Shown here: in pieces, positions 2,833 to 52,981 of the stretch
How the letters are laid out: every line of letters begins with the position of its first letter
Position numbering within the stretch: the first letter of the stretch is position 1
From: an uncultured bacterium
GTDB taxonomy: Bacteria; Babelota; Babeliae; Babelales; RVW-14
Direction: 5' to 3'
Length of the DNA: 64,000 bases
Assembly (NCBI GenBank): GCA_963759805.1
Contig: CAVXAT010000002.1
Span: forward strand, 5,532 to 69,531
Translations under genes and position numbers: made by a program
Notes under the pieces: model-generated
Databases searched by the model: none
Seen by the model: only the letters and a program-made list of their open reading frames with translations
What the model was told of the DNA's origin: nothing

Positions 2833-2854
2833 CTTTACCCTTGCCTTATATCAA

Positions 2855-3681: not shown

Positions 3682-3702
3682 ATGAATCCGTTTCCCAAAT
3701 CT

Positions 3703-4449: not shown

Positions 4450-4457
4450 GACCCTCT

Positions 4458-6243: not shown

Positions 6244-6769
6244 ACAAGTCTTTCATTGTTTTACCACGCAATCTAGCAATCTCTTTTGCGGTTCTCAATT
6301 TGCCCAACGCCTGCAACGTTGCCTTAACAACGTTTTGAGGATTAGACGATCCAATCGTTTTTGCTAAAATGTCTTTGATTCCGGCAACTTCCATAACTGC
6401 TCGAACGGCACCACCAGCTATGACACCGGTACCTTTTGATGCAGAACGAATAATTACTTTACTGCCACCCTGCTTTCCTTCTACGTTAAATGGAATTGTT
6501 GTCTTGTAGAATGGAATCGAAATCATATTTTTTCTTGCACGACGCAGTGCTTTGGCAATTGCAGAAGAAACCTCTCTGCTTTTTCCAAGAGCAACACCAA
6601 TGTTACCCTTTTTATCACCAACAACTACTAATGCTGAAAATGCAAAACGACGACCACCTTTAATAACTTTTGCAACTCTTCTAACATTTAGAACAGCTTC
6701 AGAATACTCTTCTGCCTGCGGAACCGATGCTTTTGCTAATAAGCTTCTTTTGTTTTTCTCTTCGGCCAT
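6218..6769 (-). CDS. rpsE: 30S ribosomal protein S5
   Basis: VVVGDKKGNIGVALGKSREV and GTGVIAGGAVRAVME blocks. Confidence 0.95.
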   Translation of the reverse strand: MAEEKNKRSLLAKASVPQAEEYSEAVLNVRRVAKVIKGGRRFAFSALVVVGDKKGNIGVALGKSREVSSAIAKALRRARKNMISIPFYKTTIPFNVEGKQGGSKVIIRSASKGTGVIAGGAVRAVMEVAGIKDILAKTIGSSNPQNVVKATLQALGKLRTAKEIARLRGKTMKDLFEEKHVAA

Positions 6770-6802
6770 AATCTCTTCCTACGTTCCTAAATTTTCACAA
6801 TA

Positions 6803-7159
6803 TTAAAAATTCAAGCCAGCTTCTCGTAACCCGTCAGCCAATGCTTTTACTCGACCATGATACTTATATCTGCCACGATCGAAGAAGACCTCTTTGATCG
6901 CTTTTTCTGCAGCTAACTTCCCAAGCTCCAAACCAACAAGTTTGGCAACTTCTTTCTTATCCCCTTTTGCTTTTTTTAAATTAAGAGAAGAAAAACTGAC
7001 TAAAGTTTTTTGGGTGCTATCATCTATGATCTGAGCATAAATGTTTGCAAGGCTTCTGAAAACAGCTATGCGTGGCTTTTCGCCTCGACTAACCTGGTTT
7101 CCTCTAACCCTAAAAACTCTTCTCTGTGTTTTCTGCGCTTTTTTTCTTATCAAACTCAC
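6803..7159 (-). CDS. rplR: 50S ribosomal protein L18
   Basis: PRIAVFRSLANIYAQIIDD block; operon position. Confidence 0.95.
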   Translation of the reverse strand: MSLIRKKAQKTQRRVFRVRGNQVSRGEKPRIAVFRSLANIYAQIIDDSTQKTLVSFSSLNLKKAKGDKKEVAKLVGLELGKLAAEKAIKEVFFDRGRYKYHGRVKALADGLREAGLNF

Positions 7160-7198
7160 GTGTATATCCTTTTCAACACAAAACTACCCAGACAAAAA

Positions 7199-7756
7199 TT
7201 ATGCTGCTGCTGAAGCTTTTGTTTTACCAGCCTTACGAGTAATAACTTCGTCAACTCTCATAACACCCGTACCCTTATAAGGTTCTGGCTCTCTGAAAGA
7301 CCTCACCATATCACAAACATTTCCAAGCACGAATTTATCGTGAGATTTGAATGTAAGAAGTTGTCCGGTCTTATCAACTTCAACGGTAACCCCTTCAGGA
7401 AGATTCAGATCAATTTTATGGGTATACCCCAAAGTAAATGTTAACTTTTTACCTGCAAGTTGCGCTTTAAATCCAAGCCCTACAATTTTCATTGCCTGTT
7501 CAAACCCCGCCTCCACACCCTTAATTTTATTTGCAAGCAATGCTCTATGCAAACCCCAATCCATCTTATTTTTTTTAGATTGTTTTTCACCTTTTGCTAA
7601 AGACAAAATAAGATTTTTGTCTTTCAATGTTGCTACCAAAGTATTTGGTATTTCATGAACAAATTTTGCCTTAGCCCCTGCAATAGTAACAGTGTTTCCA
7701 TTAACCTGTACCTTTGCACTCGAAAATGAAATTGCTTTTCTACCGATCTTTGACAT
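7199..7756 (-). CDS. rplF: 50S ribosomal protein L6
   Basis: Start set at the internal ATG (MSKIGRKAISF...), which matches typical L6 N-termini and lies 11 nt after the rpsH stop. The track ORF extends to 7783. Confidence 0.93.
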   Translation of the reverse strand: MSKIGRKAISFSSAKVQVNGNTVTIAGAKAKFVHEIPNTLVATLKDKNLILSLAKGEKQSKKNKMDWGLHRALLANKIKGVEAGFEQAMKIVGLGFKAQLAGKKLTFTLGYTHKIDLNLPEGVTVEVDKTGQLLTFKSHDKFVLGNVCDMVRSFREPEPYKGTGVMRVDEVITRKAGKTKASAAA

Positions 7757-7767
7757 ATTTCTGCCCT

Positions 7768-8160
7768 CTACCAAACGTGACAAATAACTTCTCCGCCAAC
7801 ACCGAGCTTTTTAGCCTGTCGATCGGTTATAACACCCGAGCTTGTCGTTAAAATTGAAATTCCAAGACCCCCGATAACAGGCGTAATGGATTTTGAACTC
7901 TCATATTGACGACGTCCCGGAGTACTAATACTTGTTATTTCATGGATAACAGACTCACCATCAACATATTTCAAAAATACTGTTAAAGTTTTTTTGCTGT
8001 CTTCTTCTGAGATTTTAAAATCTTTGATGTACCCCTCGTCTTTCAAGACTTTAGCAATCTCAACTTTTAAAACTGAGCTAGGAATAGCTACAGATCTTTT
8101 ATTAACTTTTAATCCGTTTCTAATAATTGTTAAAAAATCGCCTATCATATCTCTGGACAT
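7768..8160 (-). CDS. rpsH: 30S ribosomal protein S8
   Basis: MSRDMIGDFLTIIRNG...GGEVICHVW. The 37-codon upstream extension in the track ORF overlaps rpsN and is not S8-like. Confidence 0.93.
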   Translation of the reverse strand: MSRDMIGDFLTIIRNGLKVNKRSVAIPSSVLKVEIAKVLKDEGYIKDFKISEEDSKKTLTVFLKYVDGESVIHEITSISTPGRRQYESSKSITPVIGGLGISILTTSSGVITDRQAKKLGVGGEVICHVW

Positions 8161-8176
8161 AATCAAATTCCCACTT

Positions 8177-8362
8177 TTACCAACTAGCCTTTTTAATTCC
8201 AGGCAAAACACCCTGCAATGCATTTTTACGAAAACACATCCTGCACATCTCGAAAAAACGCATATACGCACGCGGTCTTCCGCAGAGCTTACAACGATTT
8301 CTTGCTCGAGTCGAAAATTTAGGAGTTTTATTACTTTTTTCTATCATCGCTTTTCTTGCCAT
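8177..8362 (-). CDS. rpsN: 30S ribosomal protein S14, type Z (zinc form, 61 aa)
   Basis: C-x2-C...C-x2-C (CKLCGRP...CRMCFR) and the short 61-aa length typical of S14 type Z. Confidence 0.95.
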
Positions 8363-8374
8363 ATCAATCCTCTA

Positions 8375-8923
8375 TTAACTCTTCTTTCGGAAAGGCATAT
8401 TAAATTTTTTTAGCAATGCAAGCGCATGCTCATCTGTTCGGGCTGTAGTATGAATTGTTATATTCAAACCACGGCTTCTATCGACTTTATCATAATCAAC
8501 TTCAGGAAAGTTAATCCAGTCCGATAACCCAAGATTATAATTACCCGTTCCGTCAAACTTAGTCGAAATTCCCTGAAAATCACGAACGGATGGTAATACA
8601 ATATTTATAAGCTTGTCCAAAAAATGATACATTCTCGATTTACGTAAAGTAACGCAAACTCCGATTGGCATTCCCTGACGTAACTTAAAACTTGCAATCG
8701 ATTTTTTTGCAAGTGTTTTAACTGAACACTGTCCTGCAATTTTATCAATCAAATCCTTTACCTGTGTTACAACTTTTGAGTCAGTAACACCCTCTTTTAC
8801 GGCAATGTTAATAACAATTTTGGAAATTGCAGGAACTTCCATAACATTCCCAACGCCTAACTCTTTTTCAAGTTCTGGGCGAATTTTTGTTTTATATAAA
8901 TCTTCAAGTCGTGATTTATTCAT
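8375..8923 (-). CDS. rplE: 50S ribosomal protein L5
   Basis: NVMEVPAISKIVINIAV and RGLNITIHTTA blocks. Confidence 0.95.
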   Translation of the reverse strand: MNKSRLEDLYKTKIRPELEKELGVGNVMEVPAISKIVINIAVKEGVTDSKVVTQVKDLIDKIAGQCSVKTLAKKSIASFKLRQGMPIGVCVTLRKSRMYHFLDKLINIVLPSVRDFQGISTKFDGTGNYNLGLSDWINFPEVDYDKVDRSRGLNITIHTTARTDEHALALLKKFNMPFRKKS

Positions 8924-8938
8924 AGACCTTACCTACCA

Positions 8939-9253
8939 TTAAAAAGATTCTTTGCATCTATGACAAATTCTTGCTTTGTCATTTTCTTCTAAAAATTTAA
9001 CCTGTACACGGCAAGGCTTTTTGCAAGAAGGACAAATTGGCATAACTTTATGCAAAGGAATTGGACGTTCTTCTTTTACAATTCCACTTTTTTGGCCAGC
9101 TTTTCTTGCTTTTACATGTCGGGTCACAATTTCCACATCTTTTACAACAACAGTACTATTATGATTATCGACATTAATTACTAAACCTTGCTTGCCTCTA
9201 TCTTTTCCGGAAAGAACAATAACTGAATCGTTCTTTTTCACTCTACTTAACAT
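8939..9253 (-). CDS. rplX: 50S ribosomal protein L24 (with Cys4 C-terminal ribbon)
   Basis: KOW motif KKNDSVIVLSGKDRGKQGLV. The C-terminus, ICPSCKKPCRV...ICHRCKESF, resembles the Thermus-type L24 recalled from memory. Confidence 0.93.
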   Translation of the reverse strand: MLSRVKKNDSVIVLSGKDRGKQGLVINVDNHNSTVVVKDVEIVTRHVKARKAGQKSGIVKEERPIPLHKVMPICPSCKKPCRVQVKFLEENDKARICHRCKESF

Positions 9254-9269
9254 ATTTTTACCTCAACAC

Positions 9270-9638
9270 TTACCAAACTTCAGGCGCAAGCGAGATAATC
9301 TTAGCATACCCAGCAGCCCTCAATTCTCTTGCAATAGGACCGAAAATACGCGTTCCAACTGGCTGTTTTTCTTTATCAATGATAACAGCCGCATTATCAT
9401 CGAAACGAATATAACTGCCATCAGAACGACGACATTCCTTACGAGTTCTAACAATAACAGCATCCAGCACTTCGCTTTTTTTAACAGTCCCACCAGGGAT
9501 TGCATTTTTCACTGTAACCTTAACAATATCACCCAAGTAGGCATAACGTTTTTTGCTACATCCTGTGATACGAATAACTTGCAACTTTTTAGCGCCAGAA
9601 TTATCAGCAACCTCAAGCATTGCACGTTCTTTAACCAT
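9270..9638 (-). CDS. rplN: 50S ribosomal protein L14
   Basis: [24 protein letters not shown], a canonical L14 N-terminus. Confidence 0.95.
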
Positions 9639-24978: not shown

Positions 24979-26105
24979 ATACATATGAGACTAAAAAGTT
25001 GAATTTTTGAATTTGCTTGAAATATAATAAAGACCTCCAGAAAACATAACAAACTTTTTAGGAGGCCTTTATTATGCAGACAAAACGTCTACACAAGAAA
25101 TACTATTATATTTCTAAAATAGATGAAAGAGATTATTCAAAAATAGTTTGGGAGCGCAAGCAAAAGCTCGAGCTATTCGATACATTAATGTGTGATGGAT
25201 GCTCGGAAGAAGTTGCCATCCAAGCAATTGGAATGTCTCGATCAAAATACTATCGATTAAAAGCTCGTTATCAAAGAGATGGCCTTGCAGGCCTTGAGAA
25301 TCAAAGTAGAAAACCACATCGCTTAAGACAACCTCAATGGCCCCCTGAAATTGAGGAAAAGGTATGTGGGATTCGAAATAAATTCCGTGTTTGGGGCAAG
25401 GATAAAATTGCTGTTATTCTTAAACGGGAATTCAATCTTAAGGTATCGATTAGCACGGTTGGACGCATATTATCAAAGCTTATAAAAAATGGAAAATGTA
25501 AAACTGTTTCGTTTTATACTGGAAAATACTCACCAAAGCCAAGAATATTTAATGATCATGCTCAGCGGTTACCAACTGGAGCCAAGAGCAAAAGACCTGG
25601 AGAACTCGTACAAATTGACCATATGACGGTTAAACTTGATTCAGGAAAAGAAGTTAAACACTTTGATGCAATGTGTCCAACGACGCACGTTGCCGTGGGT
25701 AAAGCATATCGCCAAGCAACGAGTTTAATCGCAACAGATTTTCTTGATTTTATGGTTCAGCAGCTGCCTTTCCCGCTTTTATCAGTTCAGGTCGATGGGG
25801 GCAGTGAGTTCAAAGGTGAATTCGAACAAGCCTGTAAAAGTCGCAATATTCCCCTTTTTGTTACCCCTCCGAGATCGCCTCAAATTAACGGTGCTGTTGA
25901 ACGGGGAAATGGAACCGTTAAGTATGAATTTTACAGCCTGTACGACAAAGGCGACAACCTTCAATTCATTAATGACTCACTGCAACAATTTATGAATATA
26001 TATAACAATTATCGACCCCATCGCAGTTTACAAGGACTTACGCCTATGGAATACTGTATAAAGATGGAGGTCTTTCAATCGAATTCTCAGTCTCATATGT
26101 ATTGA
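24979..26105 (+). mobile_element. IS481-like insertion sequence (single HTH + DDE transposase ORF)
   Basis: Perfect 14-bp terminal inverted repeats: ATACATATGAGACT at 24979-24992 and its complement at 26089-26102. The transposase stop sits at the right end. Confidence 0.75.
25074..26105 (+). CDS. IS481-family DDE transposase/integrase
   Basis: N-terminal HTH (MSRSKYYRLKARYQRDGLAGLENQSRKPH) and an rve core with D (VQIDHM), D (VQVDGGSEF), E (NGAVERGNG) and YNNYRPHRSL. Confidence 0.9.
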   Translation: MQTKRLHKKYYYISKIDERDYSKIVWERKQKLELFDTLMCDGCSEEVAIQAIGMSRSKYYRLKARYQRDGLAGLENQSRKPHRLRQPQWPPEIEEKVCGIRNKFRVWGKDKIAVILKREFNLKVSISTVGRILSKLIKNGKCKTVSFYTGKYSPKPRIFNDHAQRLPTGAKSKRPGELVQIDHMTVKLDSGKEVKHFDAMCPTTHVAVGKAYRQATSLIATDFLDFMVQQLPFPLLSVQVDGGSEFKGEFEQACKSRNIPLFVTPPRSPQINGAVERGNGTVKYEFYSLYDKGDNLQFINDSLQQFMNIYNNYRPHRSLQGLTPMEYCIKMEVFQSNSQSHMY

Positions 26106-26211
26106 ACGCAGTCACCCATTTGCAAATAAAGAATTTATAAATTAATCTTGTTAGTAATCTAAGTAGAATATTGTGAGGTTATATTTTAATATTTTTTTGG
26201 GAGGTTATTTC

Positions 26212-28020
26212 ATGAAAATGTTTAAGAAAATAATATTATCGATTCTGATAGCTGGCTGCACAAGTTTTGCAGCATTTGGAGCGAAAGATTCCGGTACAGC
26301 GCCAGCAACTGCGCCCAAAGCAGATTATATAAAAATACAACTCAAGAACGGAAGGGTCCTGCATCTTCCCAAACAAGTCGCAAATATTACAAAATATTTC
26401 AACAACCCTACGCAACAAGCTATGCGCACTGGCATTGAAACCGGTGTTAAATTTGAAAATTTTGATGATAACGTCGTTGAGCTAACCTGCAGCATGATTA
26501 AAGTAATTTACAACTTGCGCCAAGATCAAGAGTCCCAAGCATACAGTAATGATACCAAAAATAAAATGCTTCAAGATATACTTAATCACGCGCTTAATAA
26601 TAAACGCACATTGCTCAAGCAAACTGATTTTGATATCAACCAAGCATGGTGCTTTGCCGATTATCTCGATGGAATTCCAGAATTAGAACAAGCCATTATG
26701 GCTGTGTTGGCCAAAAACATTTGTACACCAGAATTTCTTGATACATTCCAAGGCAATGAATTTTTATCAGATGATCCAACCAATGATCTAACCAATCAAA
26801 AATTTAGGGAGCAATTAAAAGAAGCTTTAAATAAGTATATAAAAATACATCAGCCTGATGTTTATGCGCGCATAATGCCTTACAGCTGCTCTCAAACATT
26901 GAGGTTGCGGAACGACAGCGCCTGTAGCCTATGCGTTACACCAGATGGCAAGATAGTTTCTGGATCTTTTTTTGGATCCATAACCATATGGATCTGTAAT
27001 CCTGTAAATCATAAATATAGGCTGCTTCAAACACTTAATGCTTCAATTGGCGGTCTCCCCGATCCGTGGGTGCTGAGCGTATGCGTTACACCAGATGGCA
27101 AGATAGTTTCTGGGTCTGGTAACAATATCATCAAAATATGGTCATATAATCCTGAAACCCTTCAGTACGCCCTGTCTCAAACACTTGATTCTACGGTTGA
27201 CGGCCATACCGGTTGTGTCAATTGCGTATACATTACACCGGATGGCAAGATAGTTTCCGGATCGAATGACAATACCATCAAAATATGGACCTATAATCCT
27301 GAAATCCATCAATACACGCTGTCTCAAACACTTAATTTTCCATTTGATGGCCCTGCCGGCCATACCTATTGTGTCAATTGCGTATGCATTACACCGAATG
27401 GCAAATTGGTTTCTGGGCTTTATGACAACTCCATCAAAATATGGGCTTATAATGGAGAAACCCATCAATACACCACCCTCCCTCAAACACTTGATTCTAG
27501 AGTTGGCGGCCATACCAATAGTGTCAATAGCGTATGCGTTACGCCAGATGATAAGATACTTTCTGGGTCTTCTGACAGTACCATCAAAATATGGTCCTAC
27601 AGTCCTGAAACACATCAGTACGCCCTATCTCAAACACTTGTCGTCGGTCATGTGGGCAGTGTTGAAAATGTGTGTGTTACTCAAGATGGCAGGATCGTTT
27701 CAGCACTTGAGGTCCCCCCAGGTTGGGGCGACATTATGGACTCAGCCATAAAAATATGGTCCTATAATACTGAAACCAATCAGTACGCCCTATCCCAAAC
27801 ACTTGATTCTACAGTTGGCGGTCATACCAGTTTTGTCAGGACGGCATGCATTACATCAGATGGCAAAATAGTTTCCGGGGCTAATGACAACACCATCAAA
27901 ATATGGGCGGCGCCTAATTTAACGATTGAGCAGATTATTGCACGGTTAAAAAAAGAGCTCGTACCAGCAACTCAGGTACGACAGAAACACAAACATAGGA
28001 CGCAGTCTTCGTGGAAATAA
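26212..28020 (+). CDS. Predicted lipoprotein with an N-terminal Skp1/BTB-like domain and a 7-bladed WD40 beta-propeller
   Basis: GGGAGG Shine-Dalgarno before ATG 26212. The signal peptide has a lipobox (ILIAGC). Seven ~45-aa repeats follow: C(V/I)TPDGKIVSGS.DNTIKIW.YNPE..QY.LSQTL. The Skp1-like similarity is described in the findings. Confidence 0.85.
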   Translation: MKMFKKIILSILIAGCTSFAAFGAKDSGTAPATAPKADYIKIQLKNGRVLHLPKQVANITKYFNNPTQQAMRTGIETGVKFENFDDNVVELTCSMIKVIYNLRQDQESQAYSNDTKNKMLQDILNHALNNKRTLLKQTDFDINQAWCFADYLDGIPELEQAIMAVLAKNICTPEFLDTFQGNEFLSDDPTNDLTNQKFREQLKEALNKYIKIHQPDVYARIMPYSCSQTLRLRNDSACSLCVTPDGKIVSGSFFGSITIWICNPVNHKYRLLQTLNASIGGLPDPWVLSVCVTPDGKIVSGSGNNIIKIWSYNPETLQYALSQTLDSTVDGHTGCVNCVYITPDGKIVSGSNDNTIKIWTYNPEIHQYTLSQTLNFPFDGPAGHTYCVNCVCITPNGKLVSGLYDNSIKIWAYNGETHQYTTLPQTLDSRVGGHTNSVNSVCVTPDDKILSGSSDSTIKIWSYSPETHQYALSQTLVVGHVGSVENVCVTQDGRIVSALEVPPGWGDIMDSAIKIWSYNTETNQYALSQTLDSTVGGHTSFVRTACITSDGKIVSGANDNTIKIWAAPNLTIEQIIARLKKELVPATQVRQKHKHRTQSSWK

Positions 28021-28106: not shown

Positions 28107-28378
28107 GGCGAATAATTAAATAAAATGAACGAACGTTTATGGCTCAATATACTCGATCTATTCTAAGCTTAACGTCTTTCATGGTCAAAATAGACGCATA
28201 CTTTTGGCATTCCATGGTTAAAATAGACGGTTGCTTATGCCAAGGCCCAGCCCAAGCGGACAACGCCATCATCTGCCATAGCATAGAGTACAAAAGTATG
28301 CTAAACATTGACTTATGGTATTACTGCATGGTACCATAATAACAATGTTGTAAATTGGGTATAAAAAATTGGACCCAA

Positions 28379-28633
28379 ATGAATAAAAAACAAAGCGAAA
28401 CATTGCAGGCGATTTTTAAAGAGCCAACAAAATCAAATGTAAAATGGACAGACATTGAGTCGCTATTTAAGCATCTTGGGGCTGAAGTAAGTCAAGGCAA
28501 CGGATCTCGTATAAGAGTTGCACTTAATGGGGTAAGAGCGGTTTTTCATAGGCCACATCCAAGAAAAGAGACCGACAAGGGTGCTTTGGTTTCGGTACGT
28601 AGATTTTTAGAAAATGCAGGGATAAAGCAATGA
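28379..28633 (+). CDS. hicA: HicA-family type II toxin (mRNA interferase)
   Basis: MNKKQSETLQAIFKEPTKSNVKWTDIESLFKHLGAEV..GNGSRIRV....AVFHRPHPRKETDKGALVSVRRFLENAGI. HicA-like architecture, with a 4-nt overlap onto hicB. Confidence 0.75.
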   Translation: MNKKQSETLQAIFKEPTKSNVKWTDIESLFKHLGAEVSQGNGSRIRVALNGVRAVFHRPHPRKETDKGALVSVRRFLENAGIKQ

Positions 28634-28950
28634 TGAAATATAAAGGCTATTTGGGCGAAGTTTCTTATGATGCAAATGCAAAAATCTTTCATGGAGAAGT
28701 TCTAGGGCTAAAAGATGTTATTACGTTTCAAGGAACAACGGTCGTTGAACTTGAAAAGGCATTTAGAGATTCAGTTGATGATTATGTAGCTTGGTGTAAA
28801 GAGCGTGGCGAAGAGCCTGAGAAAGCATTCTCTGGAAACATTCATATAAGAATCTCGCCTAACCTTCATGCAAAACTTGCACAAACCGCTATAGTGCAAG
28901 GCGTAAGTTTAAATTCTTTGATTATTGATAAATTACAAAAAAATAAATAG
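28630..28950 (+). CDS. hicB: HicB-family antitoxin with a C-terminal ribbon-helix-helix
   Basis: YKGYLGEVSYDANAKIFHGEVLGLKDVITFQGTTVVELEKAFRDSVDDYVAWCKERGEEP, then an RHH-like IRISPNLHAKLAQTAIVQGVSLNSLI. Confidence 0.8.
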   Translation: MMKYKGYLGEVSYDANAKIFHGEVLGLKDVITFQGTTVVELEKAFRDSVDDYVAWCKERGEEPEKAFSGNIHIRISPNLHAKLAQTAIVQGVSLNSLIIDKLQKNK

Positions 28951-30488: not shown

Positions 30489-32882
30489 CTACTGCTCCCT
30501 GCGCATTATAGGCTGACGTCTAAATTTTTTAGCAAATGTACCTAGCGAATCTAACTTTAAAGCAAAAACAAATGTATGCTCTGTCGTATTATTACCATAC
30601 TCACGATATTTTTTAACCTCAATTCCAAAATATAAACCCCAACAGTGTCCGTTTATTTCCATTCTTACTCTATGAATCAAAGGGTTTAAGCCTTGTAAAT
30701 CTGCAAAATGGCAACCCTTTTCATCATAAAACTGGCCATCATAACAAAGTACTACCTCTTTGCTAATTGGAATTGCAATATTCACAAAAATAAAATGCGG
30801 AACATTTGATAAAAGCTCACGGATCCGTTGTAATAATGGGTACTGATAAAAATAACCGGCGGAGATGTTTAGCTTATCTTTAAAAATACCTAACCCTATC
30901 TGAGACTGAAGTAAACGAGCCCGACCAAACTCAACTTCTTGAGCTAAAGAAAGTTTTAAAATACTGTATCCAATACTAAAATCATAACTAAGCGGTAAAA
31001 GATGCCGTTGTCCTACTCCGCGACGCAGGTAAAAAATATCGGATTGACTATAAAAATCATACCCCTGCTCAATATTCAGATCGATATTCCAGTTTTTCCA
31101 ATTCAAATTATTGGAAATATTTCCGGACAGTTCGTTTATTGGATATGCTCGATCCCACAAATCCATGTAATACCAATTTTTTTGATAAAATTTAGGCAAG
31201 AATGTCCACTTAATTGTCGGCTGCATAAAATTAGAGCAACTAAAATCATCACTATAACTGGTGACCTCAGGCAGAGCCCATTCAGCACCATATTTTGAGT
31301 AAATTCTATAAGCTCCATTCCCCAACAGATGATCCTCGATAACATTTTTTTTATGAATATCTTTTGAGAAAGTGTTACTTCTAAACTGAACTTGCGGTTC
31401 AGCAAAAAGCCTAATGTTGCTATTTTTTAAATTAATGCGCGAATGAAGATTCCCCTTATATCCAGCCCTGAATACATCATGCTTTTTAGGAGGAATCAAC
31501 AACGATTCATTAATCATTCTTGAATTTACAAAGATACGCCCTATCTTAATTTGGCTACAAGAGATCTCATCAAAAAACAGGTCATGCCGATAAAATAATG
31601 TATTATATAGGCTCCAGTTGGAAGCATTCCACTCAAAATGAGGTAGCTTTACCGTGTTAAACCTATCTTCAATCTCTTTTTTTGTAACAAAATCATCATT
31701 AAACTCAATAACTTTTTCTTTATGATCATTAGCGAATTTTTTAGCAAAAACAATCTCCTCCCGAGTAAGATTTAAAAATTGCTTACGACTTGTACGCTCT
31801 TGATCCCATTTTAATTCAACCAAATGCTTACTGGATAACCCCCTAAAAATAACCGAATTAAAGAATGTGTCATCAACCTCTTCAATGTTATTATAAAAGT
31901 AGTATCCAATCTGTTTATCCGTACCAAAATCTGCACGGATAAGACTTCTAAAATCAAAATTTCCAAGATGCGTCAGATATGTAAAATCCTTACCCTGAAT
32001 CCAATACCTATGCTCTGTTTTTGGAACAATATTGTCATTTTCTAAGGCATACGAATCGTTGACTACGGCGTACTGCCCATAGGCAGTTGTAAATGAATCG
32101 GGAGACCGCGCCCATCTAAATTCATCTGAAAATACACAGCCTCTTCGCGTTTTAAAATCTAAGCCAAACGTAGTATCACAATGTCGATTGATATATTTGT
32201 AATACTCTACTTTCACGCCAAAACCAAGACTATAATCAAATGAAAATTTTGGAATTAAAAAACCTGACTTTGAACGGCCCTGAATTGGCAAAGCCATCCT
32301 TGGCACATAAAAAACCGGAATTCCACCTGTTTTGAAAAGAATATTCGACGCATCTATGAAATAACTTCCGTGTATAACAGCCTTTGTCGCACTAAAATAC
32401 CAGTGTAAATCCTCTTGATCACAAGCCGAAAACAGAATATCTTCCATTCGCCAGTTAAAATCATTAAGTTTTTGTGCCCTCTTCGCAGAAATATACCCTT
32501 CATCCATATGAATTTTTATATTCTCGGCATAACCTGTTTTATTTTCAAGATTCAAAAGAATATAATCAGTTAAAATTACAAAATCATTATTTTCAATTTT
32601 TACCGGACCACATTCAGACATCTTTGCAATCAGTGTCTGCTCCTTACGATCTATCTCTACCCTGTCAGCAGACAAACGAAATTTTTGATCTATGATCGCA
32701 TCGACGGCGCCTTCAAAAATGATTCTGTTCTCATCAATAACCGTCTGTTTTAAACTGTTTACGCGCAAAAATTTACCGGACGTTGAGGATTTTATAGCGG
32801 CATTTAAATTAAAAGAAAAAAATGTAAGAATAAGCAGCAAACCCGCTTGTCGCAAATAACTTTTAAGCATATTCAAAATCAA
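30489..32882 (-). CDS. lptD: LPS-assembly outer-membrane protein LptD/OstA-like
   Basis: Signal peptide, an OstA-like N-terminal beta-jellyroll region (LSADRVEIDRKEQTLIA...GYISAKRAQ) and a ~600-aa aromatic-rich beta-barrel-like remainder. Family assignment rests on overall pattern only. Confidence 0.65.
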   Translation of the reverse strand: MILNMLKSYLRQAGLLLILTFFSFNLNAAIKSSTSGKFLRVNSLKQTVIDENRIIFEGAVDAIIDQKFRLSADRVEIDRKEQTLIAKMSECGPVKIENNDFVILTDYILLNLENKTGYAENIKIHMDEGYISAKRAQKLNDFNWRMEDILFSACDQEDLHWYFSATKAVIHGSYFIDASNILFKTGGIPVFYVPRMALPIQGRSKSGFLIPKFSFDYSLGFGVKVEYYKYINRHCDTTFGLDFKTRRGCVFSDEFRWARSPDSFTTAYGQYAVVNDSYALENDNIVPKTEHRYWIQGKDFTYLTHLGNFDFRSLIRADFGTDKQIGYYFYNNIEEVDDTFFNSVIFRGLSSKHLVELKWDQERTSRKQFLNLTREEIVFAKKFANDHKEKVIEFNDDFVTKKEIEDRFNTVKLPHFEWNASNWSLYNTLFYRHDLFFDEISCSQIKIGRIFVNSRMINESLLIPPKKHDVFRAGYKGNLHSRINLKNSNIRLFAEPQVQFRSNTFSKDIHKKNVIEDHLLGNGAYRIYSKYGAEWALPEVTSYSDDFSCSNFMQPTIKWTFLPKFYQKNWYYMDLWDRAYPINELSGNISNNLNWKNWNIDLNIEQGYDFYSQSDIFYLRRGVGQRHLLPLSYDFSIGYSILKLSLAQEVEFGRARLLQSQIGLGIFKDKLNISAGYFYQYPLLQRIRELLSNVPHFIFVNIAIPISKEVVLCYDGQFYDEKGCHFADLQGLNPLIHRVRMEINGHCWGLYFGIEVKKYREYGNNTTEHTFVFALKLDSLGTFAKKFRRQPIMRREQ

Positions 32883-37298: not shown

Positions 37299-38420
37299 TT
37301 ATTTTTCTAATAGCCTTGTTACAAATTTGTGAATTAAAACATAGCACAAAGGAATAAAAAATGGTGTCATTTCAAAACTTCCATATCTGGCTATGTGCTG
37401 ATCAAACGCACAAATCCTATCTAACGTATAATTATTATATCGAGCAACGCTACAGTTTGCTTCTGTGTCCTTTCCATACTCCGTATGAATCAAAAGAAAC
37501 ATCGTCAAAGATGCCATAAAAAAAGCCCCCAAAATAGCAAATGGCGCTTCTATAGTAAATCTAGACACATTTAATGCAATGCCACCTAATGAAGTCGTTG
37601 ATCCACTAACGACTTCTAATCTTCTTAAATACTCAGGGCTTATTGCATTTAGCGCAGACAATATTGTGGTTGCCATTTTTTGATCAACTGACGATAATAC
37701 ACGTTCTAGTTGTGCAGCTGCAGCTTCTGGTTTTATCTGTAATCTTGCTACTGCTGCCGCTGATCGACTTTGCATAGGTATAGCTTGTCCTTCTTGCAAC
37801 GGTATTTCAGATTCTTTGTCTGAGATTATTCCGAACACATCTACTGTTTTCGGTAATGCTTTTAGAGATTCGCAAAAGGACCCATACCATGTCTCACCCA
37901 ATGCACGCCTTGCTACTTTTCTTGCCGCTTTTGCTCGTAACATTGCTGCTGCGTGCGCTGCTGGGTCTTGTGTTTGTGTTGCTTTATATTCTGCTATGGC
38001 TGACGCAATAATTGCTGCTAGAGCATTGGCTACTTGTGCTGGGGTTACTTGTACCAGCGCGTCAGACAAATCACCTTCTAAAATAGCTGCTATTACTTCT
38101 GCGTTTTTTGTATGCGGTGAGATCAAACGTATTAAACTAGATTGACCTGCCACTTCTCGTACTACTGGTACTACTGGGGCTGTTGTTGTTGATGTTGATG
38201 CTACTGGTTGTGGGGCTGGGGCTGTTGTTGATGTTGATGCTACTGGTGGTATTGTTAATGAACTCAAGCTCGAAGATCTCGAAACTCTTGTTGATGTTCC
38301 TGGCTTACGCTGTTGCTGCCCTTTTCCGGAACCACCCTTACCAGGGTTGCCAGTCATGGCAGATAGACTTGTAGAAATCAATAATCCCATCGAAACGATA
38401 AAAGCTAAATGCTTTTTCAT
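37299..38420 (-). CDS. Hypothetical secreted/membrane protein, family 'B' (signal peptide, ASTST-type low-complexity region, C-terminal hydrophobic segments)
   Basis: AGGAGGTTATATC precedes the ATG. MKKHLAFIVSMGLLISTSLSA signal peptide. VASTSTTAPAPQPVASTSTTTAP repeats, an Ala-rich helical middle, and hydrophobic APFAILGAFFMASLTMFLLI. Confidence 0.6.
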   Translation of the reverse strand: MKKHLAFIVSMGLLISTSLSAMTGNPGKGGSGKGQQQRKPGTSTRVSRSSSLSSLTIPPVASTSTTAPAPQPVASTSTTTAPVVPVVREVAGQSSLIRLISPHTKNAEVIAAILEGDLSDALVQVTPAQVANALAAIIASAIAEYKATQTQDPAAHAAAMLRAKAARKVARRALGETWYGSFCESLKALPKTVDVFGIISDKESEIPLQEGQAIPMQSRSAAAVARLQIKPEAAAAQLERVLSSVDQKMATTILSALNAISPEYLRRLEVVSGSTTSLGGIALNVSRFTIEAPFAILGAFFMASLTMFLLIHTEYGKDTEANCSVARYNNYTLDRICAFDQHIARYGSFEMTPFFIPLCYVLIHKFVTRLLEK

Positions 38421-38607: not shown

Positions 38608-39444
38608 TTAGCAGCCACGTAGGTTTTTATCAATCGCGCACAATGATGGATCGCACAGGGTACCATCAATCTCGCAATAGCCGGCAAAGCTCCCATCCGG
38701 CAAAACAACGGCCGGAACGCTGTTTGAAATCAGTTTCGCTGCCTGCTTTAATTGGGCTTCTTGGGCCGAAATTTTGTTTAACTGAGCATTACAAATCCCA
38801 TTCTTCCCTGAACCCCAACGCTCTGAAATTCCAGGTATCCAATCTGCAATCAAAGGCCCCGGCCCATTGCAGTAGGCAGGAATAATCAAAAGTTGCCACA
38901 CAATTGCTCCACCTATCAATAAAACAACCCCCATTGTTGCACCAACTGCAACACCTTTGATAACAGATTTCGAAAGCGATTTTAACGACTGCCCTACCCC
39001 TTGCAAAGATTCTTTTAAAGTATCAACAACAAAAGAGTCTTTAAAGGCAGACCTAATCCAGTTCCCTACTGAGCCTGTTGATGGTAAACCATTGGCACTA
39101 CGTTGGTCGCTTAACTCTGCTAATCCATCTGGTCTGGATGGTAAAACTCCTCGATCCAAACTTCGCTTAAGATTAAGTACGTTTTGAAATTCCTCTTTAT
39201 TTTTCATTTTTCCGGCATCTTCTAAGGCAACTTTCAAAAATTCCTCCATCGGAACAACTTTGGATTCTTTGCCGTCACTCATCATAACAACTGGATGCAA
39301 AGCAGCATCTTGTGCCGGAGTTGGCATAGCGGAGAATAATTCAGTTACGTAACTAGTCACACAAATAAATGAAATCAGAGTAGCAAAAAGAACTTTGCTA
39401 CCCCAAAATTTACACACAGTCTTAAATTCATCAAATTTAAACAT
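38608..39444 (-). CDS. Hypothetical membrane protein, family 'A' (paralogue of 36366-37049)
   Basis: Same length class and layout as 36366-37049: N-terminal TM, P-V-V-M-M-S-D-G motif, central TM (GVAVGATMGVVLLIGGAIVWQLLII), Cys-rich C-terminus. Confidence 0.6.
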   Translation of the reverse strand: MFKFDEFKTVCKFWGSKVLFATLISFICVTSYVTELFSAMPTPAQDAALHPVVMMSDGKESKVVPMEEFLKVALEDAGKMKNKEEFQNVLNLKRSLDRGVLPSRPDGLAELSDQRSANGLPSTGSVGNWIRSAFKDSFVVDTLKESLQGVGQSLKSLSKSVIKGVAVGATMGVVLLIGGAIVWQLLIIPAYCNGPGPLIADWIPGISERWGSGKNGICNAQLNKISAQEAQLKQAAKLISNSVPAVVLPDGSFAGYCEIDGTLCDPSLCAIDKNLRGC

Positions 39445-39630: not shown

Positions 39631-40476
39631 TTAGTCGTCAAGGCCAAATGGATGGTATCCCCATCTTCTTAGTTCTGGGCGTCCAAAGAAAAAACTTACA
39701 GGCAGCTTAATAAATAAATCATAAGCACAACGCAATCCAATTATAACCCCAAAAAGCCATCCACCAAAACGTAAGCCACTCAATCCAAGAAATGTTCCCA
39801 GATACTGTAATCCCGAAATTGCAGTCCATAATCTTGAGACCGTATAGTGAAAGGAGATTCGAGAAAATACATCCTCCAATGCAAAACCGGCCAATCTCAA
39901 TCTCTTATTCGCGGCATCTCCAAGAGCATCGCTTGATGTGAGATATAACATTATTCCGCATAATAAACCCTCTAAAACACATCTAATTAAAACTTTTGTT
40001 GTTGGCTCAGCATTAGCTGTAGAATTAGTAATCCAAGAGGTTATTGATGACCCTAACTCCCAAGGAGCAGCAAGTAATTTCTTAAGAGCACTGACTGCTG
40101 CCTGGCGATTAGCAGGCACTGCTGCTGCAGAGGTACTCGCACCAGGAGTAAGAACATTGCCTAATGCCCTGCGATTAGCAGGTACTTCCGCTGTAGGTGT
40201 ACTCGCAACAAGAGTAAAAGCTTTGCCTCCTGCCCTACGATTAGCAGGTACTTCCGCTGTAGACGTACTCGCAACAGGAAGCCTTTTGACTTCCTCAACA
40301 GAAGAAGTTTGCGTTGCATACGTAACAGCGCTGCTGTGATAATCCTTCTGTTTCTTCTGGGAAGAATCCTTCTGGGAAGCATTCTCATCTTTTTTCATGG
40401 CATTTAAGTCAGAACTCAAAAGGCCCATACTCAACCCTGCACCCACCAATAAAAACACAAATATATTCTTTTTCAC
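39631..40476 (-). CDS. Hypothetical secreted/membrane protein, family 'B' (paralogue-like of 37299-38420)
   Basis: GTG start preceded by GGAGGTTATC. Signal peptide KKNIFVFLLVGAGLSMGLLSS. Three repeats of ASTS(T/A)AEVPANRR, and C-terminal hydrophobic segments. Confidence 0.6.
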   Translation of the reverse strand: MKKNIFVFLLVGAGLSMGLLSSDLNAMKKDENASQKDSSQKKQKDYHSSAVTYATQTSSVEEVKRLPVASTSTAEVPANRRAGGKAFTLVASTPTAEVPANRRALGNVLTPGASTSAAAVPANRQAAVSALKKLLAAPWELGSSITSWITNSTANAEPTTKVLIRCVLEGLLCGIMLYLTSSDALGDAANKRLRLAGFALEDVFSRISFHYTVSRLWTAISGLQYLGTFLGLSGLRFGGWLFGVIIGLRCAYDLFIKLPVSFFFGRPELRRWGYHPFGLDD

Positions 40477-40705
40477 GATAACCTCCATATTTAATAAAAC
40501 TAAAAAAACCACCATCTTTTTAAACTAAAATTTATCACTTGTAATATTATACTAGCAGACAAAAATACTAAAATCAAAGGCCCCCACCCCATTGCAAACT
40601 TGAAAAACAAAAAATATACTCTATCATCACATAAGATTTTAAATAAATTATTAAATAAACTATCCAATTGTGTGTTAGGAATTAGATGTGTGTGTTAGGA
40701 ATTAG

Positions 40706-49390: not shown

Positions 49391-52300
49391 ATGAAAAAGA
49401 TTTTTCATGTTTTTTCGATGTTACTGTTGTTAGGTTCGTTACAAGTTGATCTTTGCGCAATGCAGGAACCAGATGATGCAACGACTCCCGTTGAAATACC
49501 AGTAGATCATCCAAATTCCGGCCTGATAAACGGCCAGAGCATCTGTTATCTAAACGCTGTAATTCAATGTCTTTCAAATCTTAAAACTTTCAGAGAAAAA
49601 TTGTTAGCCCACGAAGACACTTATCAGAACAATCCTCTTGTTTTAAATTTAATCAGATTATTCAAAGACTTAAGAACAACCACAGAACCTGCAATACAAA
49701 ATGACACCTTGATTGGCCATGTAAAAACGTTAATCACAAATCAATCAGGAAATGCACGAGAACACTTTCAAGATGCGGATGAAATTCTAACTCTGTTGTT
49801 AGGACAAATTAACAAACCAAACAAAATTTCTTTAGAGTTACAACTTGATCAGAAAGTTAAATGCCTTGGAGCTCATGGTGCAGCCGGTTGTCAGCACGAA
49901 TCCCCAAAACATGAGACGCATGAAACAATTGCATTACCACTTGATGAAATTGCCACTCAAAATACACTTCAAGCATTGCTTGAAAGCTTTTTTACATCAT
50001 CATTCGCACATGATTATGTTTGTGATGGTTGTGGTAAAAAAAATACATCTTTTAAAACTTCTAGAATTTCAAAAAACCAAGATGAATTAATTATCACGTT
50101 AAAAAGATTCAATTCAGATGGGACCAAGATAGATACATCTATTTCATTTCCAATGGAACTCGATTTAAAGCCTTATTCAACAGATGGGCTAAAACAACAA
50201 GCCGGCGTAGATCTTTCATATGAATTAGTTGGTTTTGTTTGTCATGGCGGTAACCATTATATTTCATTTGTAAGAGATTTTGGAAATGGGGAATGGTACA
50301 TGTATAACGATTCGGCAGTCAGCGATGAAATAAATTTGCAACTTATACAAGGGATTACCACGACAGGTAGTTTTTCACTAAATTCTCAAATTTTCACACC
50401 ATACATTTTGTTTTATCAAAAAAATGGAATCGGGGGGCAAACGCTTGCTCATCCAACAGCACAACAATCTGTAGATCAAGATGAAGGCGAAGATTGGGAT
50501 TCATCAGATGGCGAGGATGAACTTCAGCCGCCAACAACTAAAGGCTTTTTTAGCTGGTTTCTTGGATGGGCTACCGGTAACAACCAAAGAGAAGACGAGC
50601 GAAGAAAACAAGAAGAGGTTAAATTGCAAGAAGAGGCGATAAAGAAACGTCAAGAGGAGAAACTAAGGATGCGAAGGGAAACTAGACTACAAGAAGAAGT
50701 GATAGAAAAACGCCAAAACCTAGGACTCATGAAAGTCGAAGCACTCCCATATTTAAATTCAGTCGTACAGTGTCTTTCGAATCTTAAAAAATTTAAGACT
50801 AAACTATTTGCAAGTGAAAATGATTATAAAGATGATTTTTTAATTCTTAGCCTTATTAATCTTATCAAAAGACTGAAGAATTCTAGCGAATCATTAGGAA
50901 ATCAAGATTTTGTAGAGCAAGCAAAGATTTTGGTGCAACAAAGTAAAAATAATGAAGTTGCACTTCAGGTGGCAGATGAATTTTTAAATTTGTTATTTGA
51001 TCGTCTGCATACCCAAGACATGGAACCTCTTAATCTCCTAATTAATATAATTACCCAGTGCATAAAAAACAAAGATATATCAGGTTGCGAATATTCTTTA
51101 GATGAAGATGGAGTTGTGCAACCCAAGACAAGCCTATGTTTTAAAGAATTAAAAAGTGTCCAAGAAATTTTGGCAAAGCAATTTTCACCTTCTTTTGATA
51201 AAGGGTACACCTGCAAATGTTGTCATAAAGCTGGAACTTCTGTTATTACACAGAAATTTTTACGCTGCCCTTCCGAATTAATAATTTCTTTACAACGATT
51301 TGATTCATCTGGAAATAAAGATTTATCGCCAGTTATTTTACCATTGATACTTGATTTGACCCCTTATCTTAGCCATGAATTACTACAACAAATCGATCAG
51401 GCTCCGTATGAATTAGTGGGCATTGTTTGTTGCAATCGAAACTCTCAATATTATTCTTACATGAAAAATATTGCATCAGATAAATGGTTCCGGTACAACG
51501 ATGAGTCCGTTGTAGAGGTCAGCAATCAAGAAATTAAAACGCTGGCAGATTCCGGAATAGATTCGCAAAATTTTGTGCCATACATTTTATTTTATGAATT
51601 AAAGGAGTCCGAATGCCATACAAGTGCATCTCAAGCGCAACAAAGTTCAACTGCAACGAAAGATCAAAGATCAAACGCTAAAAACACACAAGAAATAATG
51701 GCTCAAATGACGAAACTTTGGAATATAAAGAAGCAACAAGAACGGGACCTTAAACGTGCTCAGGGCGTTGCAAAATCGGCTGATAAAAATCTAGTTAATG
51801 CGCAGTTGGATGGAGCCGATTTAACCGATTTGGATTTGAATGGGGCAGATTTAACGGGTGCGTCTTTAATCGGTGCAACATTGGTTAGAACAAAATTGAA
51901 TGGCACAATTTTGGCCAATGCAAAGTTAAATAATGCAATTATTTCGGATGTTCAATTATGCAATGCGACACTAAAAAACACAGATTTGAATAATTCAACA
52001 ATAACGAATATAACCGCTCATAACATAACTATCTCAGATGGTACAAAATTTGAGAATGCAACAATAAGCTCGCTAAATCTAAAAAATATCAAACTACAAA
52101 ATGTGTCTTTTGCAAATGCAACATTAAAAAATATCACATTTTCAACCTCATTAATTGATCATGTAAATATGGCACACATACAAGCTGAGGAGTTATATTT
52201 AAATGAATCTTCGCTGACAAACATAGATTTCAGCAGGGCTTGCATTGTAGGTCTTGATATAAGCAATGCAAACATCATAGGAGATTGGTTAAATTTCAGA

Positions 52301-52981
52301 TATGCAACGATAAAAACGGGGTGCATTAGGGGAACAACCACATCTAGAAGACCTAGCCCTGGCGAACGCTCAGATGGCATCACAGAAAAAGAAAATACAG
52401 GACTAATAATGGATACAGTAGGCGTTTCAACACTTGTGACATCTACAGCTTTTGGTACTGTTACTATTCCTATTCCGATTGTTGGATCTGCCGCTGGATT
52501 TTTCTATGGATTGTTTTTGGTTGGAGTTGAGCTTATCATTCACGATGAATACCTCGACTCAAAAAAAGATTTTGGCGCTTCAAATATTAACAGCATTTTG
52601 CTCAATTCCGATTTTTATGGAGCATCATTACAAGACGTGATTGTGCAACATGTAAAGCTTGGTAATTGTATGAATATTGGAAGAATTAGAAAAGCAGTTG
52701 GAACCAATTTTGATAACATTGTAAGTAGCAATCCAAAGGATTTGGACGATTTAAGACACAAGGGCGCTTGTGTAAATGAAATTCCATCAGACGAATTTAA
52801 AGTACTATGGCCTACAAAAGGAAACGATCAGAAAGTTTTTTGGGTCAAGCTACTTGCTGGTGCTGCGCATGGAACCCTCTCAGGCACCATATCAAAAGTT
52901 GAGACAAATTTACGGGACAAACAACAAGAGGCAAAGTATAAGTCTTTTATATCTGAAGAAATACAAAAAACAAGAAAATAA
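49391..52981 (+). CDS. Signal-peptide protein with tandem USP/UCH (peptidase C19) deubiquitinase-like domains, pentapeptide repeats and a bilobed hydrophobic segment
   Basis: Domain 1 has the Cys box GLINGQSICYLNAVIQCL, zinc-ribbon CxxC pairs, the His box YELVGFVCHGGNHYISFV and WYMYNDSAV. Domain 2 has EALPYLNSVVQCL (Cys replaced by Pro) and YELVGIVCCNRNSQYYSY (His lost). Residues ~800-960 are A(D/N)LxX-type pentapeptide repeats. The hydrophobic hairpin is VGVSTLVTSTAFGTVTIPIPIVGSAAGFFYGLFLVGVELII. Confidence 0.85.
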   Translation: MKKIFHVFSMLLLLGSLQVDLCAMQEPDDATTPVEIPVDHPNSGLINGQSICYLNAVIQCLSNLKTFREKLLAHEDTYQNNPLVLNLIRLFKDLRTTTEPAIQNDTLIGHVKTLITNQSGNAREHFQDADEILTLLLGQINKPNKISLELQLDQKVKCLGAHGAAGCQHESPKHETHETIALPLDEIATQNTLQALLESFFTSSFAHDYVCDGCGKKNTSFKTSRISKNQDELIITLKRFNSDGTKIDTSISFPMELDLKPYSTDGLKQQAGVDLSYELVGFVCHGGNHYISFVRDFGNGEWYMYNDSAVSDEINLQLIQGITTTGSFSLNSQIFTPYILFYQKNGIGGQTLAHPTAQQSVDQDEGEDWDSSDGEDELQPPTTKGFFSWFLGWATGNNQREDERRKQEEVKLQEEAIKKRQEEKLRMRRETRLQEEVIEKRQNLGLMKVEALPYLNSVVQCLSNLKKFKTKLFASENDYKDDFLILSLINLIKRLKNSSESLGNQDFVEQAKILVQQSKNNEVALQVADEFLNLLFDRLHTQDMEPLNLLINIITQCIKNKDISGCEYSLDEDGVVQPKTSLCFKELKSVQEILAKQFSPSFDKGYTCKCCHKAGTSVITQKFLRCPSELIISLQRFDSSGNKDLSPVILPLILDLTPYLSHELLQQIDQAPYELVGIVCCNRNSQYYSYMKNIASDKWFRYNDESVVEVSNQEIKTLADSGIDSQNFVPYILFYELKESECHTSASQAQQSSTATKDQRSNAKNTQEIMAQMTKLWNIKKQQERDLKRAQGVAKSADKNLVNAQLDGADLTDLDLNGADLTGASLIGATLVRTKLNGTILANAKLNNAIISDVQLCNATLKNTDLNNSTITNITAHNITISDGTKFENATISSLNLKNIKLQNVSFANATLKNITFSTSLIDHVNMAHIQAEELYLNESSLTNIDFSRACIVGLDISNANIIGDWLNFRYATIKTGCIRGTTTSRRPSPGERSDGITEKENTGLIMDTVGVSTLVTSTAFGTVTIPIPIVGSAAGFFYGLFLVGVELIIHDEYLDSKKDFGASNINSILLNSDFYGASLQDVIVQHVKLGNCMNIGRIRKAVGTNFDNIVSSNPKDLDDLRHKGACVNEIPSDEFKVLWPTKGNDQKVFWVKLLAGAAHGTLSGTISKVETNLRDKQQEAKYKSFISEEIQKTRK

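Follow-up and report, generated by a model that had tools for sequence, protein, structure and literature searches.

A divergent Skp1-type domain joined to a WD40 propeller in a predicted exported protein of the Babeliales

The window analysed here is a 64,000-nucleotide stretch of DNA from an uncultured bacterium (contig CAVXAT010000002.1, positions 5,532 to 69,531). On its plus strand, at 26212..28020, it carries a gene for a protein of 602 amino acids that is predicted to be exported and in which a Skp1-like domain is fused to a WD40 propeller. The open reading frame (ORF) is as the preliminary description of this DNA had given it: it runs from 26212 to 28020 (+), stop codon included, and all peptide strings quoted there are present in the translation. 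The ORF listing also gives a longer version from an upstream GTG (26173-28020, +). Because a Shine-Dalgarno sequence, GGGAGG, can be read directly at 26199..26204 (+), 7 nt 5' of ATG 26212, this ATG rather than GTG 26173 was taken as the start, and the product begins MKMFKK. The protein is identical to a gene product on record (P0001), located on a 226 kb contig.

The product consists of a signal peptide, an alpha/beta domain of about 145 residues, a helical linker, and seven canonical WD40 blades, all encoded on the plus strand. The predicted Sec-type signal peptide (MKMFKKIILSILIAGCTSFAAFGA, 26212..26283) contains a lipobox-like IAGC and, alternatively, an AFG/A site resembling those of signal peptidase I (here and below, a slash marks the predicted cleavage site); a short low-complexity spacer follows in the translation (KDSGTAPATAPK, 26284..26319). 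The next segment, residues 37-180 (26320..26751), was delimited by a hidden Markov model (HMM), hhalign, and AlphaFold/Foldseek as a divergent Skp1-type POZ domain, composed of a beta-beta-alpha core, long helices, an H5-like FADYLDGIPELE, and an alpha7-like CTPEFLDTF. The linker (residues 181-240, 26752..26931), with two long helices in the secondary structure of the AlphaFold model 1 described below, occupies the place of Skp1 helix alpha8 and the F-box. Behind the propeller (residues 241-569, 26932..27918), sequence comparison delimits a C-terminal tail (27919..28017) with a helix, NLTIEQIIARLKKEL, that is common to the nearest relative, P0002 (LTIEEIITNLKQEL), and equivalent in position to the LTDVQAEKVW.YLQ tail of a broader family.

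The propeller is the most readily recognized part of the protein. Pfam WD40 repeats (PF00400) match the full sequence with E=6.4e-38, and dozens of other propeller families match it with values from 1e-27 to 1e-10. Exactly seven blades can be parsed in register within residues 241-590, anchored on C[VI]T(P/Q/S)(D/N)(G/D)(K/R)(I/L)(V/L)S and starting at nt 26932, 27082, 27229, 27385, 27535, 27673, and 27847 (+); blade 6 bears an insertion. The seven regular repeats expected at the outset are therefore present and presumably close into a seven-bladed propeller. At the DNA level, a repeat finder describes the blades as a repeat of ~150 nt with 62-84% identity, and the best in-register blade pairs share 82% and 80%. 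High inter-repeat DNA identity had also been claimed; the repeats are indeed regular, but they are not near-identical, and because their identity is only moderate, a very recent duplication need not be invoked.

In a full-length search, the best matches after P0002 are proteins of 470-620 residues with the same layout: a hydrophobic N-terminus, an N-terminal domain of ~150 residues, 7-8 blades with CVTPDGKIVSGS, and a C-terminal LT..Q..W.YL helix. Query coverage reaches 94% (P0006, P0053). P0053, which aligns collinearly with the window protein over 218 residues (BLASTP, E=2e-4), and P0072 carry a precomputed Skp1_POZ annotation, while P0010 and P0018 are named Candidatus (Ca.) Babeliales. The window protein agrees with these relatives in domain order and in having CVTPDGKIVSGS-type blades and a C-terminal LT..Q helix, and its N-terminal domain is homologous to theirs. 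It is thus very probably a strongly diverged member of a lineage-specific Babeliales family of signal peptide-Skp1-like-WD40 proteins, a judgement made jointly for the architecture and for the family assignment. Relatives of the N-terminal domain itself are rare. An exhaustive phmmer search of 1.84 billion representatives recovered only P0002 (2e-37) and two fragments (P0121 and P0122), and a profile search with A3 added only three proteins. The contigs of 185,579 species representatives, scanned with the full protein, yielded only generic WD40 proteins from cyanobacteria, Omnitrophota, and other groups, aligned from residue ~140 onward, and the N-terminal domain was not found among them. No match came from a word-indexed protein search with the N-terminal domain or from contig scans with a degenerate DNA pattern for CTPEFL..GNEF, and no relative appeared in single-sequence scans of metagenome and viral contigs.

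The Skp1 affinity of the broader family is clear. A profile of 17 family N-terminal domains (A2), compared with the PDB, matches Dictyostelium Skp1a with 5.7e-18, Arabidopsis ASK2 with 2e-17, and human SKP1 with ~3e-16, in the last case over residues 3-135; the value for Elongin C is no better than 5e-3, and no classical BTB protein is matched. Pfam Skp1_POZ (PF03931) is found in eight of the 17 members, at best with 4e-11. On these two grounds, the broader family is Skp1-derived beyond reasonable doubt. In the window protein, the N-terminal domain is the most diverged part, with 10-18% identity to family members. The A2 HMM nevertheless aligns with it collinearly over profile positions 7-118 (15.5 bits, E=6e-7 as a single comparison), a score reached by none of 2000 shuffles (best shuffle, 11.6 bits); the fragment P0121 also passes the shuffle test (1/2000). 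When the narrow subfamily was enlarged by a newly found paralog and its ortholog fragments were merged, hhalign aligned it with the family over 117 collinear columns, including the H5 helix (probability 56%, E=1e-4).

Predicted structures point in the same direction. An AlphaFold model built from a combined alignment (model 1; pLDDT 81.8, pTM 0.76) was compared by Foldseek with 350,542 PDB chains: Skp1 accounts for nearly all of the top 35 matches, with probabilities of 0.9-1.0, TM-scores of 0.5-0.59 (target length), and 165-178 aligned columns. Elongin C and BTB proteins are found among or below Skp1, BTB-Kelch proteins with probabilities of 0.3-0.4. Since the alignment behind this model contained Skp1-like sequences, a second one (model 2) was built from the narrow subfamily only, without Skp1-annotated sequences. 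Its top 50 Foldseek matches are, without exception, Skp1 or Elongin C, which serves as weak independent support. The order of secondary-structure elements is nearly identical in the two models, and we take it to be the order found in Skp1. Against a viral library, Foldseek placed giant-virus Skp1 and SKP1/BTB/POZ proteins first, followed by poxvirus BTB-Kelch proteins. As sequence, architecture, and both models agree, a Skp1-type POZ fold was accepted for the window domain and is highly likely; on profile and model evidence, the domain is Skp1-type and not classical BTB. The N-terminal region was thus rightly called Skp1-like in the preliminary description: family profile (6e-18 against Skp1), HMM (6e-7), shuffles (0/2000), hhalign, and Foldseek (almost exclusively Skp1 and Elongin C) concur. 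The resemblance exceeds chance and is visible only to profile and structure methods.

The window is a chromosomal stretch with genes for EF-Tu, ribosomal protein L2, LpxC, CTP synthase, YidC, and an HtrA-like protease. Its L2 falls into a 90%-identity cluster with those of 'candidate division TM6 bacterium GW2011_GWF2_36_6' and Ca. Babeliales, and the organism therefore belongs to the Dependentiae (TM6). Dependentiae are obligate intracellular parasites of protists, and the host-dwelling lifestyle that had been guessed from the DNA agrees with this placement. Published genomes of Dependentiae abound in ankyrin, WD40, F-box, RING, and ubiquitin-specific protease (USP) proteins with signal peptides, a set that has been taken to be secreted into the amoeba (PMC4378268; PMC4776705).

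Taken as a whole, the data are best explained, tentatively and with somewhat less than even confidence, by an exported single-chain mimic of a Skp1-cullin-F-box (SCF) type ligase component acting in the protist host. After Sec export, release or surface exposure, perhaps by way of the type II secretion system conserved in the phylum, would bring the protein to the host cytoplasm, where the Skp1-like domain would dock onto the N-terminal domain of a host cullin or onto another SCF component, while the WD40 propeller would capture a host protein. One chain would then do the job of Skp1 and an F-box/WD40 receptor, as BTB-Kelch proteins do for Cul3, and the outcome would be ubiquitination of the captured protein or a block of SCF function. 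In line with this, and with the earlier suggestion that a Skp1-like/WD40 fusion would bypass the F-box, no F-box (PF00646, PF12937) was detected at E up to 10 in the full protein, in its N-terminal domain, or in the isolated linkers of six members; as judged from these sequences, the F-box-bypass architecture is real for the whole family. A possible F-box remnant in the linker (LP.DI...II in relatives) was considered and rejected, having no Pfam support. Nor did Pfam report a classical BTB domain (PF00651) in the N-terminal domain or in family members, and no BACK or 3-box was detected.

Sequence features of Skp1 are partly retained. They were read against a human SKP1 reference sequence that is identical to the PDB entry over all 163 residues. 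The H5-like helix, A(D/N)YL-x-(I/V)P, is the best-conserved segment throughout the family, and FADYLDGIPELE of the window protein aligns to H5 of SKP1 with its conserved A-A-N-Y-L-D-I; the H5 helix of Skp1 is said to contact Cul1, as reportedly described by Zheng et al. in 2002. The family profile can be aligned with Skp1 as far as residue ~135, where alpha7 begins, the first of the two C-terminal helices (alpha7 and alpha8) by which Skp1 binds the F-box; in the window protein, CTPEFLDTF resembles the SKP1 alpha7 segment, and the two long linker helices come next. The PxPN motif of strand B3 has been described as involved in Skp1-Cul1 contacts (Stogios 2005, PMC1257465). Opposite human PLPN (residues 46-49), the window protein has KFEN, P0002 has QFKD, and the ortholog on a related contig (L084) has QFKA. 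The broader family has PLPN, PLPS, PLPT, or SLPx at this position, so that mostly at least one proline is kept. The notion of a cullin-RING receptor mimic is accordingly weakened for the window protein.

Several observations weigh against the SCF-type mimic. Both PxPN prolines are lost in the window's subfamily, for which reason cullin binding by the window protein is unproven, and an equivalent of Skp1 helix alpha8 was not detected in it. The N-terminal domain alone has no Pfam match at E up to 10 (Skp1_POZ PF03931 and Skp1 PF01466 included), no PDB sequence match by phmmer, and no significant NCBIfam match; the subfamily profile (A1) does not match the PDB either. P0002 alone fails the shuffle test, a first hhalign comparison of the four-sequence subfamily with the family gave a probability of 31% over 31 columns only, and the profile link between the window domain and the family is modest. 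As to the structures, model 1 may be biased by the Skp1-like relatives in its alignment, and model 2 has a pLDDT of 47.9 and low TM-scores. Crossing of the outer membrane is a step that we infer only, and the lipobox, if used, would leave the protein anchored in a membrane. Finally, the role proposed for the window protein and its relatives is inferred. Cullin binding by this highly derived member is hence uncertain, and its productive engagement of a cullin seems possible but somewhat doubtful.

The strongest alternative, although itself rather unlikely, is a decoy or sequestering effector without ligase function, whose domain would not bind a cullin and would be used for oligomerization, docking, or binding of another partner. 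The propeller might titrate or relocalize a host protein, or the protein might rival host Skp1 and thereby poison SCF. Such an effector would fit the loss of both PxPN prolines in the subfamily, the extreme divergence of the domain (no Pfam match and three relatives only in 1.84 billion representatives), and the frequent self-association of POZ folds (Stogios 2005, PMC1257465). It accords less well with the best-conserved segment, which is still a Skp1 H5-like A(D/N)YL-x-(I/V)P helix, with the retention of PLPN, PLPS, or PLPT and clear Skp1 similarity by relatives, and with the fact that the domain is kept intact across orthologs and paralogs despite fast change.

The N-terminus bears on another alternative. 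The N-terminus, MKMFKKIILSILIAGC, fits the lipobox [LVI][ASTVI][GAS]C, preceded by Lys residues and a hydrophobic h-region; IAGC corresponds to residues 13-16, and Cys16 is encoded by nt 26257-26259. A strict lipobox occurs in one of the 24 family members, the window protein. Its nearest relative, P0002, starts with MKKSFKIILWAMLALQAWSAIFA/MQ and has no Cys, according to a re-reading of its contig (L083), on which the called start of P0002 lies too far downstream and the true start is preceded by a Shine-Dalgarno-like sequence. The Babeliales homologs P0010 and P0018 have ...GAVCGASSAFG/MD (LLLGAVCGASSAFG/MD), paralleling IAGCTSFAAFGA/KD of the window protein, and most remaining members have a signal peptide with an n-region and an h-region and a type-I-like ...A/M junction. 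Similar ...A/M signal peptides are found in a USP and in several unannotated ORFs of the window. Because the lipobox is unique to one member and most others have ...A/M signal peptides, Sec export is regarded as the conserved feature; the window protein probably carries an ordinary Sec signal peptide, and lipidation is possible. The assignment as a lipoprotein in the preliminary description is therefore not sustained by the family, its nearest relative being Cys-free with an ...A/M junction. In Babela, signal peptides of this kind have been read as a mark of secretion into the amoeba (PMC4378268), and a type II secretion system, with gspD present twice, is conserved among TM6 genomes (PMC4776705).

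An envelope lipoprotein without a role in the host, lipid-anchored in the inner or outer membrane and with its propeller in the periplasm or on the surface, for instance a BamB-like scaffold or an adhesin, is accordingly improbable. The N-terminus would suit it, with its match to [LVI][ASTVI][GAS]C, the preceding Lys, and Cys at position 16, and diderm bacteria do have beta-propeller lipoproteins, BamB among them. The lipobox, however, is missing in 23 of 23 other members, P0002 included (MKKSFKIILWAMLALQAWSAIFA/MQ), NCBIfam gave no match to BamB or another envelope family, the blades are of the canonical eukaryotic WD40 type (PF00400), and the combination of rapid divergence and tandem expansion is effector-like; moreover, we know of no bacterial-envelope role for a Skp1-type domain. 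A BamB-like or other envelope lipoprotein was consequently rejected as the main explanation, on the absence of an NCBIfam match and the lack of conservation of the lipobox.

It is equally implausible that the N-terminal domain is a lineage-specific helical domain not homologous to Skp1, its likeness convergent or accidental and the whole a plain secreted WD40 protein: the absence of direct sequence matches for the domain, the low confidence of model 2, and Foldseek E-values of only 5e-3 to 1e-1 with TM-scores of at most 0.59 would allow it, but the architecture, the CVTPDGKIVSGS WD40 signature, and the C-terminal helix match a family with a clearly Skp1-like N-terminal domain, HMM and hhalign alignments are collinear over ~115 columns with 0/2000 shuffles reaching the real score, and with either model Foldseek retrieves hardly anything but Skp1 and Elongin C from 350,542 chains.

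The SCF-type mimic favored here would resemble known ligases in several respects. With SCF assemblies of Skp1 and beta-TrCP or Fbw7/Cdc4, the protein shares a Skp1-type POZ domain with an H5 A(D/N)YL helix and an alpha7-like TPE, and a seven-bladed propeller (eight-bladed in some relatives) as the presumed substrate-binding part, held by a helical linker as in Fbw7 and beta-TrCP. It differs from them in being one polypeptide of bacterial origin with a Sec signal peptide, no F-box, no detectable alpha8, and the PxPN prolines lost. The combination of a cullin-docking POZ fold and a beta-propeller substrate receptor in one chain recalls Cul3 adaptors (BTB-Kelch, BTB-MATH, and the BTB and WD proteins KCTD3/SHKBP1) and poxvirus BTB-Kelch proteins; BTB-Kelch adaptors of Cul3 unite adaptor and receptor in a single chain (PMC4403949; PMC1257465), and poxvirus and giant-virus BTB proteins are among the structural matches of the window domain. 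Unlike in these adaptors, the domain is Skp1-type (profile values of 1e-16 to 1e-18), neither BACK nor 3-box was detected, and the propeller is WD40 instead of Kelch.

Among prokaryotic systems, Legionella AnkB/LegU1, the Parachlamydiaceae NEX/PEX proteins with F-box-leucine-rich repeat (LRR) and BTB-LRR architectures, and the Babela F-box protein likewise bring eukaryotic-type ligase parts into bacteria. These effectors belong to amoeba-associated intracellular bacteria and show lineage-specific tandem expansion and rapid birth-and-death (PMC4209131; PMC4378268). They mimic the F-box receptor, and thus need host Skp1, or use BTB-LRR, whereas here Skp1 itself is copied and fused to WD40. A further parallel is given by giant-virus Skp1 and SKP1/BTB/POZ proteins (Pandoravirus, Orpheovirus, Solumvirus, Pithovirus), encoded by amoeba parasites with Skp1-like adaptors of their own. 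This likeness exists at the level of the fold only (11-15% identity, E >= 2e-2), and a search of viral contigs with the N-terminal domain of P0053 gave no relative.

Known bacterial and viral cullin-RING mimics copy the receptor (F-box, PRANC, SOCS-box-like) or use a classical BTB domain. The general theme, amoeba-associated bacteria mimicking parts of cullin-RING ligases, is already well known. No report of a bacterial Skp1-domain protein or of a Skp1/WD40 fusion was found in a literature search covering Dependentiae, Chlamydiae, and Legionella, and the copying of Skp1 with its fusion to WD40 appears to be undescribed. Domman 2014 reported F-box and BTB-LRR families only and mentioned no WD40 or Skp1 fusion (PMC4209131); Pagnier 2015 described an F-box protein, a RING protein, USPs, and WD40 proteins in Babela, with Skp1 occurring only in a reference (PMC4378268). 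In its most far-reaching and rather unlikely form, the interpretation would make the family F-box-independent single-chain SCF receptors that plug straight into host Cul1, the first pathogen effectors to mimic the adaptor and not the receptor: tandemly diversifying propellers could retarget the host ligase, and the lipobox variant of the window might sit on the bacterial surface and there, where parasite and host meet, recruit or disarm host cullin ligases.

If the SCF-type mimic is real, dependence on host Skp1 and the F-box interface would be removed, and the two-chain SCF adaptor/receptor would prove collapsible into one chain, as in Cul3 adaptors. The family provides testable candidate effectors for the poorly known Dependentiae, and its gradient from clearly Skp1-like members with PLPN kept to the highly derived window gene could serve to map the requirements of cullin binding and the amoebal targets. 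Should cullin binding be absent, this would still be a eukaryotic adaptor fold repurposed by a bacterium.

The history of the gene can be read from a syntenic contig (L084; ENA ERZ25039473 contig_80889), which shares with the window lpxC, L13, pyrG, the ortholog of the fusion gene, pepP, and a homolog of the ORF at 30489-32882. In tblastn comparisons, identity amounts to 84-90% for pyrG (well-aligned segments), 83% for pepP (main segment), and 76% for the last ORF; for the ortholog it is ~43% in the N-terminal domain and, in the blades, mostly 35-60%. The gene has thus long resided at its site and evolves far faster than its neighbors. In the window, it is adjoined upstream by an IS481-like transposase (25074..26105, +; Pfam rve, HTH_32, LZ_Tnp_IS481) and downstream by a HicA/HicB toxin-antitoxin pair (28355..28950, +; HicA_toxin E=7e-12, HicB E=1e-19). 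Neither the transposase nor HicAB has a tblastn match in L084, and both are for this reason regarded as lineage-specific insertions around an older gene. On L084, lpxC, pyrG, and pepP are each split into ORFs in different frames, a pattern that indicates assembly indels rather than pseudogenes. P0121 and P0122 are accordingly considered artefactual fragments of one ortholog.

Tandem copies are found elsewhere in the family; the window itself contains a single copy. On a 217 kb contig (L002, ENA ERZ25039495 contig_44773), positions 1-9629 hold at least five full-length paralogs, arranged head-to-tail, and two short fragments. A protein of that contig, P0105, runs at its end into the signal peptide and first strands of a further member, apparently by read-through or by fusion of two tandem genes. 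The contig of P0002 (L083, ENA ERZ27248448 k141_535813, 1-2241) has a second paralog of the narrow subfamily downstream of it, starting at nt 1747, and its first 100 nt possibly represent the end of a third. In P0034 (618 residues), the C-terminal half of the Skp1-like domain seems to be duplicated, with the segments ...ITNYLAIEPLLGRIVKKLAEVLPANFEKF... and ...LAYYLDDENFLDKAIKKLAEALIQPKNIEEF... before the propeller. The tandem birth-and-death pattern is like that of the chlamydial F-box and BTB families (PMC4209131), and rapid divergence together with tandem paralogs suggests effector-like evolution.

The USP mentioned earlier as lying ~21 kb away is real. It is encoded 21.4 kb downstream of the gene (49391..52981, +), has 1196 residues with UCH (PF00443, E=2e-60) and pentapeptide repeats (E=7e-19), and starts with the signal peptide MKKIFHVFSMLLLLGSLQVDLCA/MQE (...DLCA/MQE). 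Since it is 21 kb off, with housekeeping genes in between, it constitutes a thematic context and not a genetic linkage; as a pointer to manipulation of host ubiquitin it holds in the former sense only. Next to it are a pentapeptide-repeat protein of 328 residues with a signal peptide (53007-53993) and an ORF of 1336 residues with a signal-peptide-like start (...GFAWG/MG) and no Pfam domain (54022-58032), so that the stretch 49391-58032 (+) looks like a cluster of predicted exported proteins. On the minus strand, ORFs starting with signal peptides lie at 37299-38420, 38608-39444, 39631-40515, 62223-63602, and 30489-32882, and no Pfam domain was found in the three that were scanned (those at 30489, 37299, and 62223). 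Three of the five signal peptides end in ...A/M (SLSA/MTG, LFSA/MPT, and DLNA/MKK); judging from the predicted sites, secreted proteins of this genome seem to have Met habitually right after the cleavage site, at position +1.

Another transposase or integrase (60435-61355, +; rve core and HTH_21), located close to the end of the window, brings the mobile-element genes to two within 64 kb, the other being the IS481-like transposase. A scan for promoters and terminators revealed nothing that exceeds shuffle expectation. The GC content of the fusion gene, 0.413, is slightly higher than the window mean of 0.387. The GC skew is near zero over 24-30 kb, where genes turn to the plus strand, and about -0.2 in the flanks.

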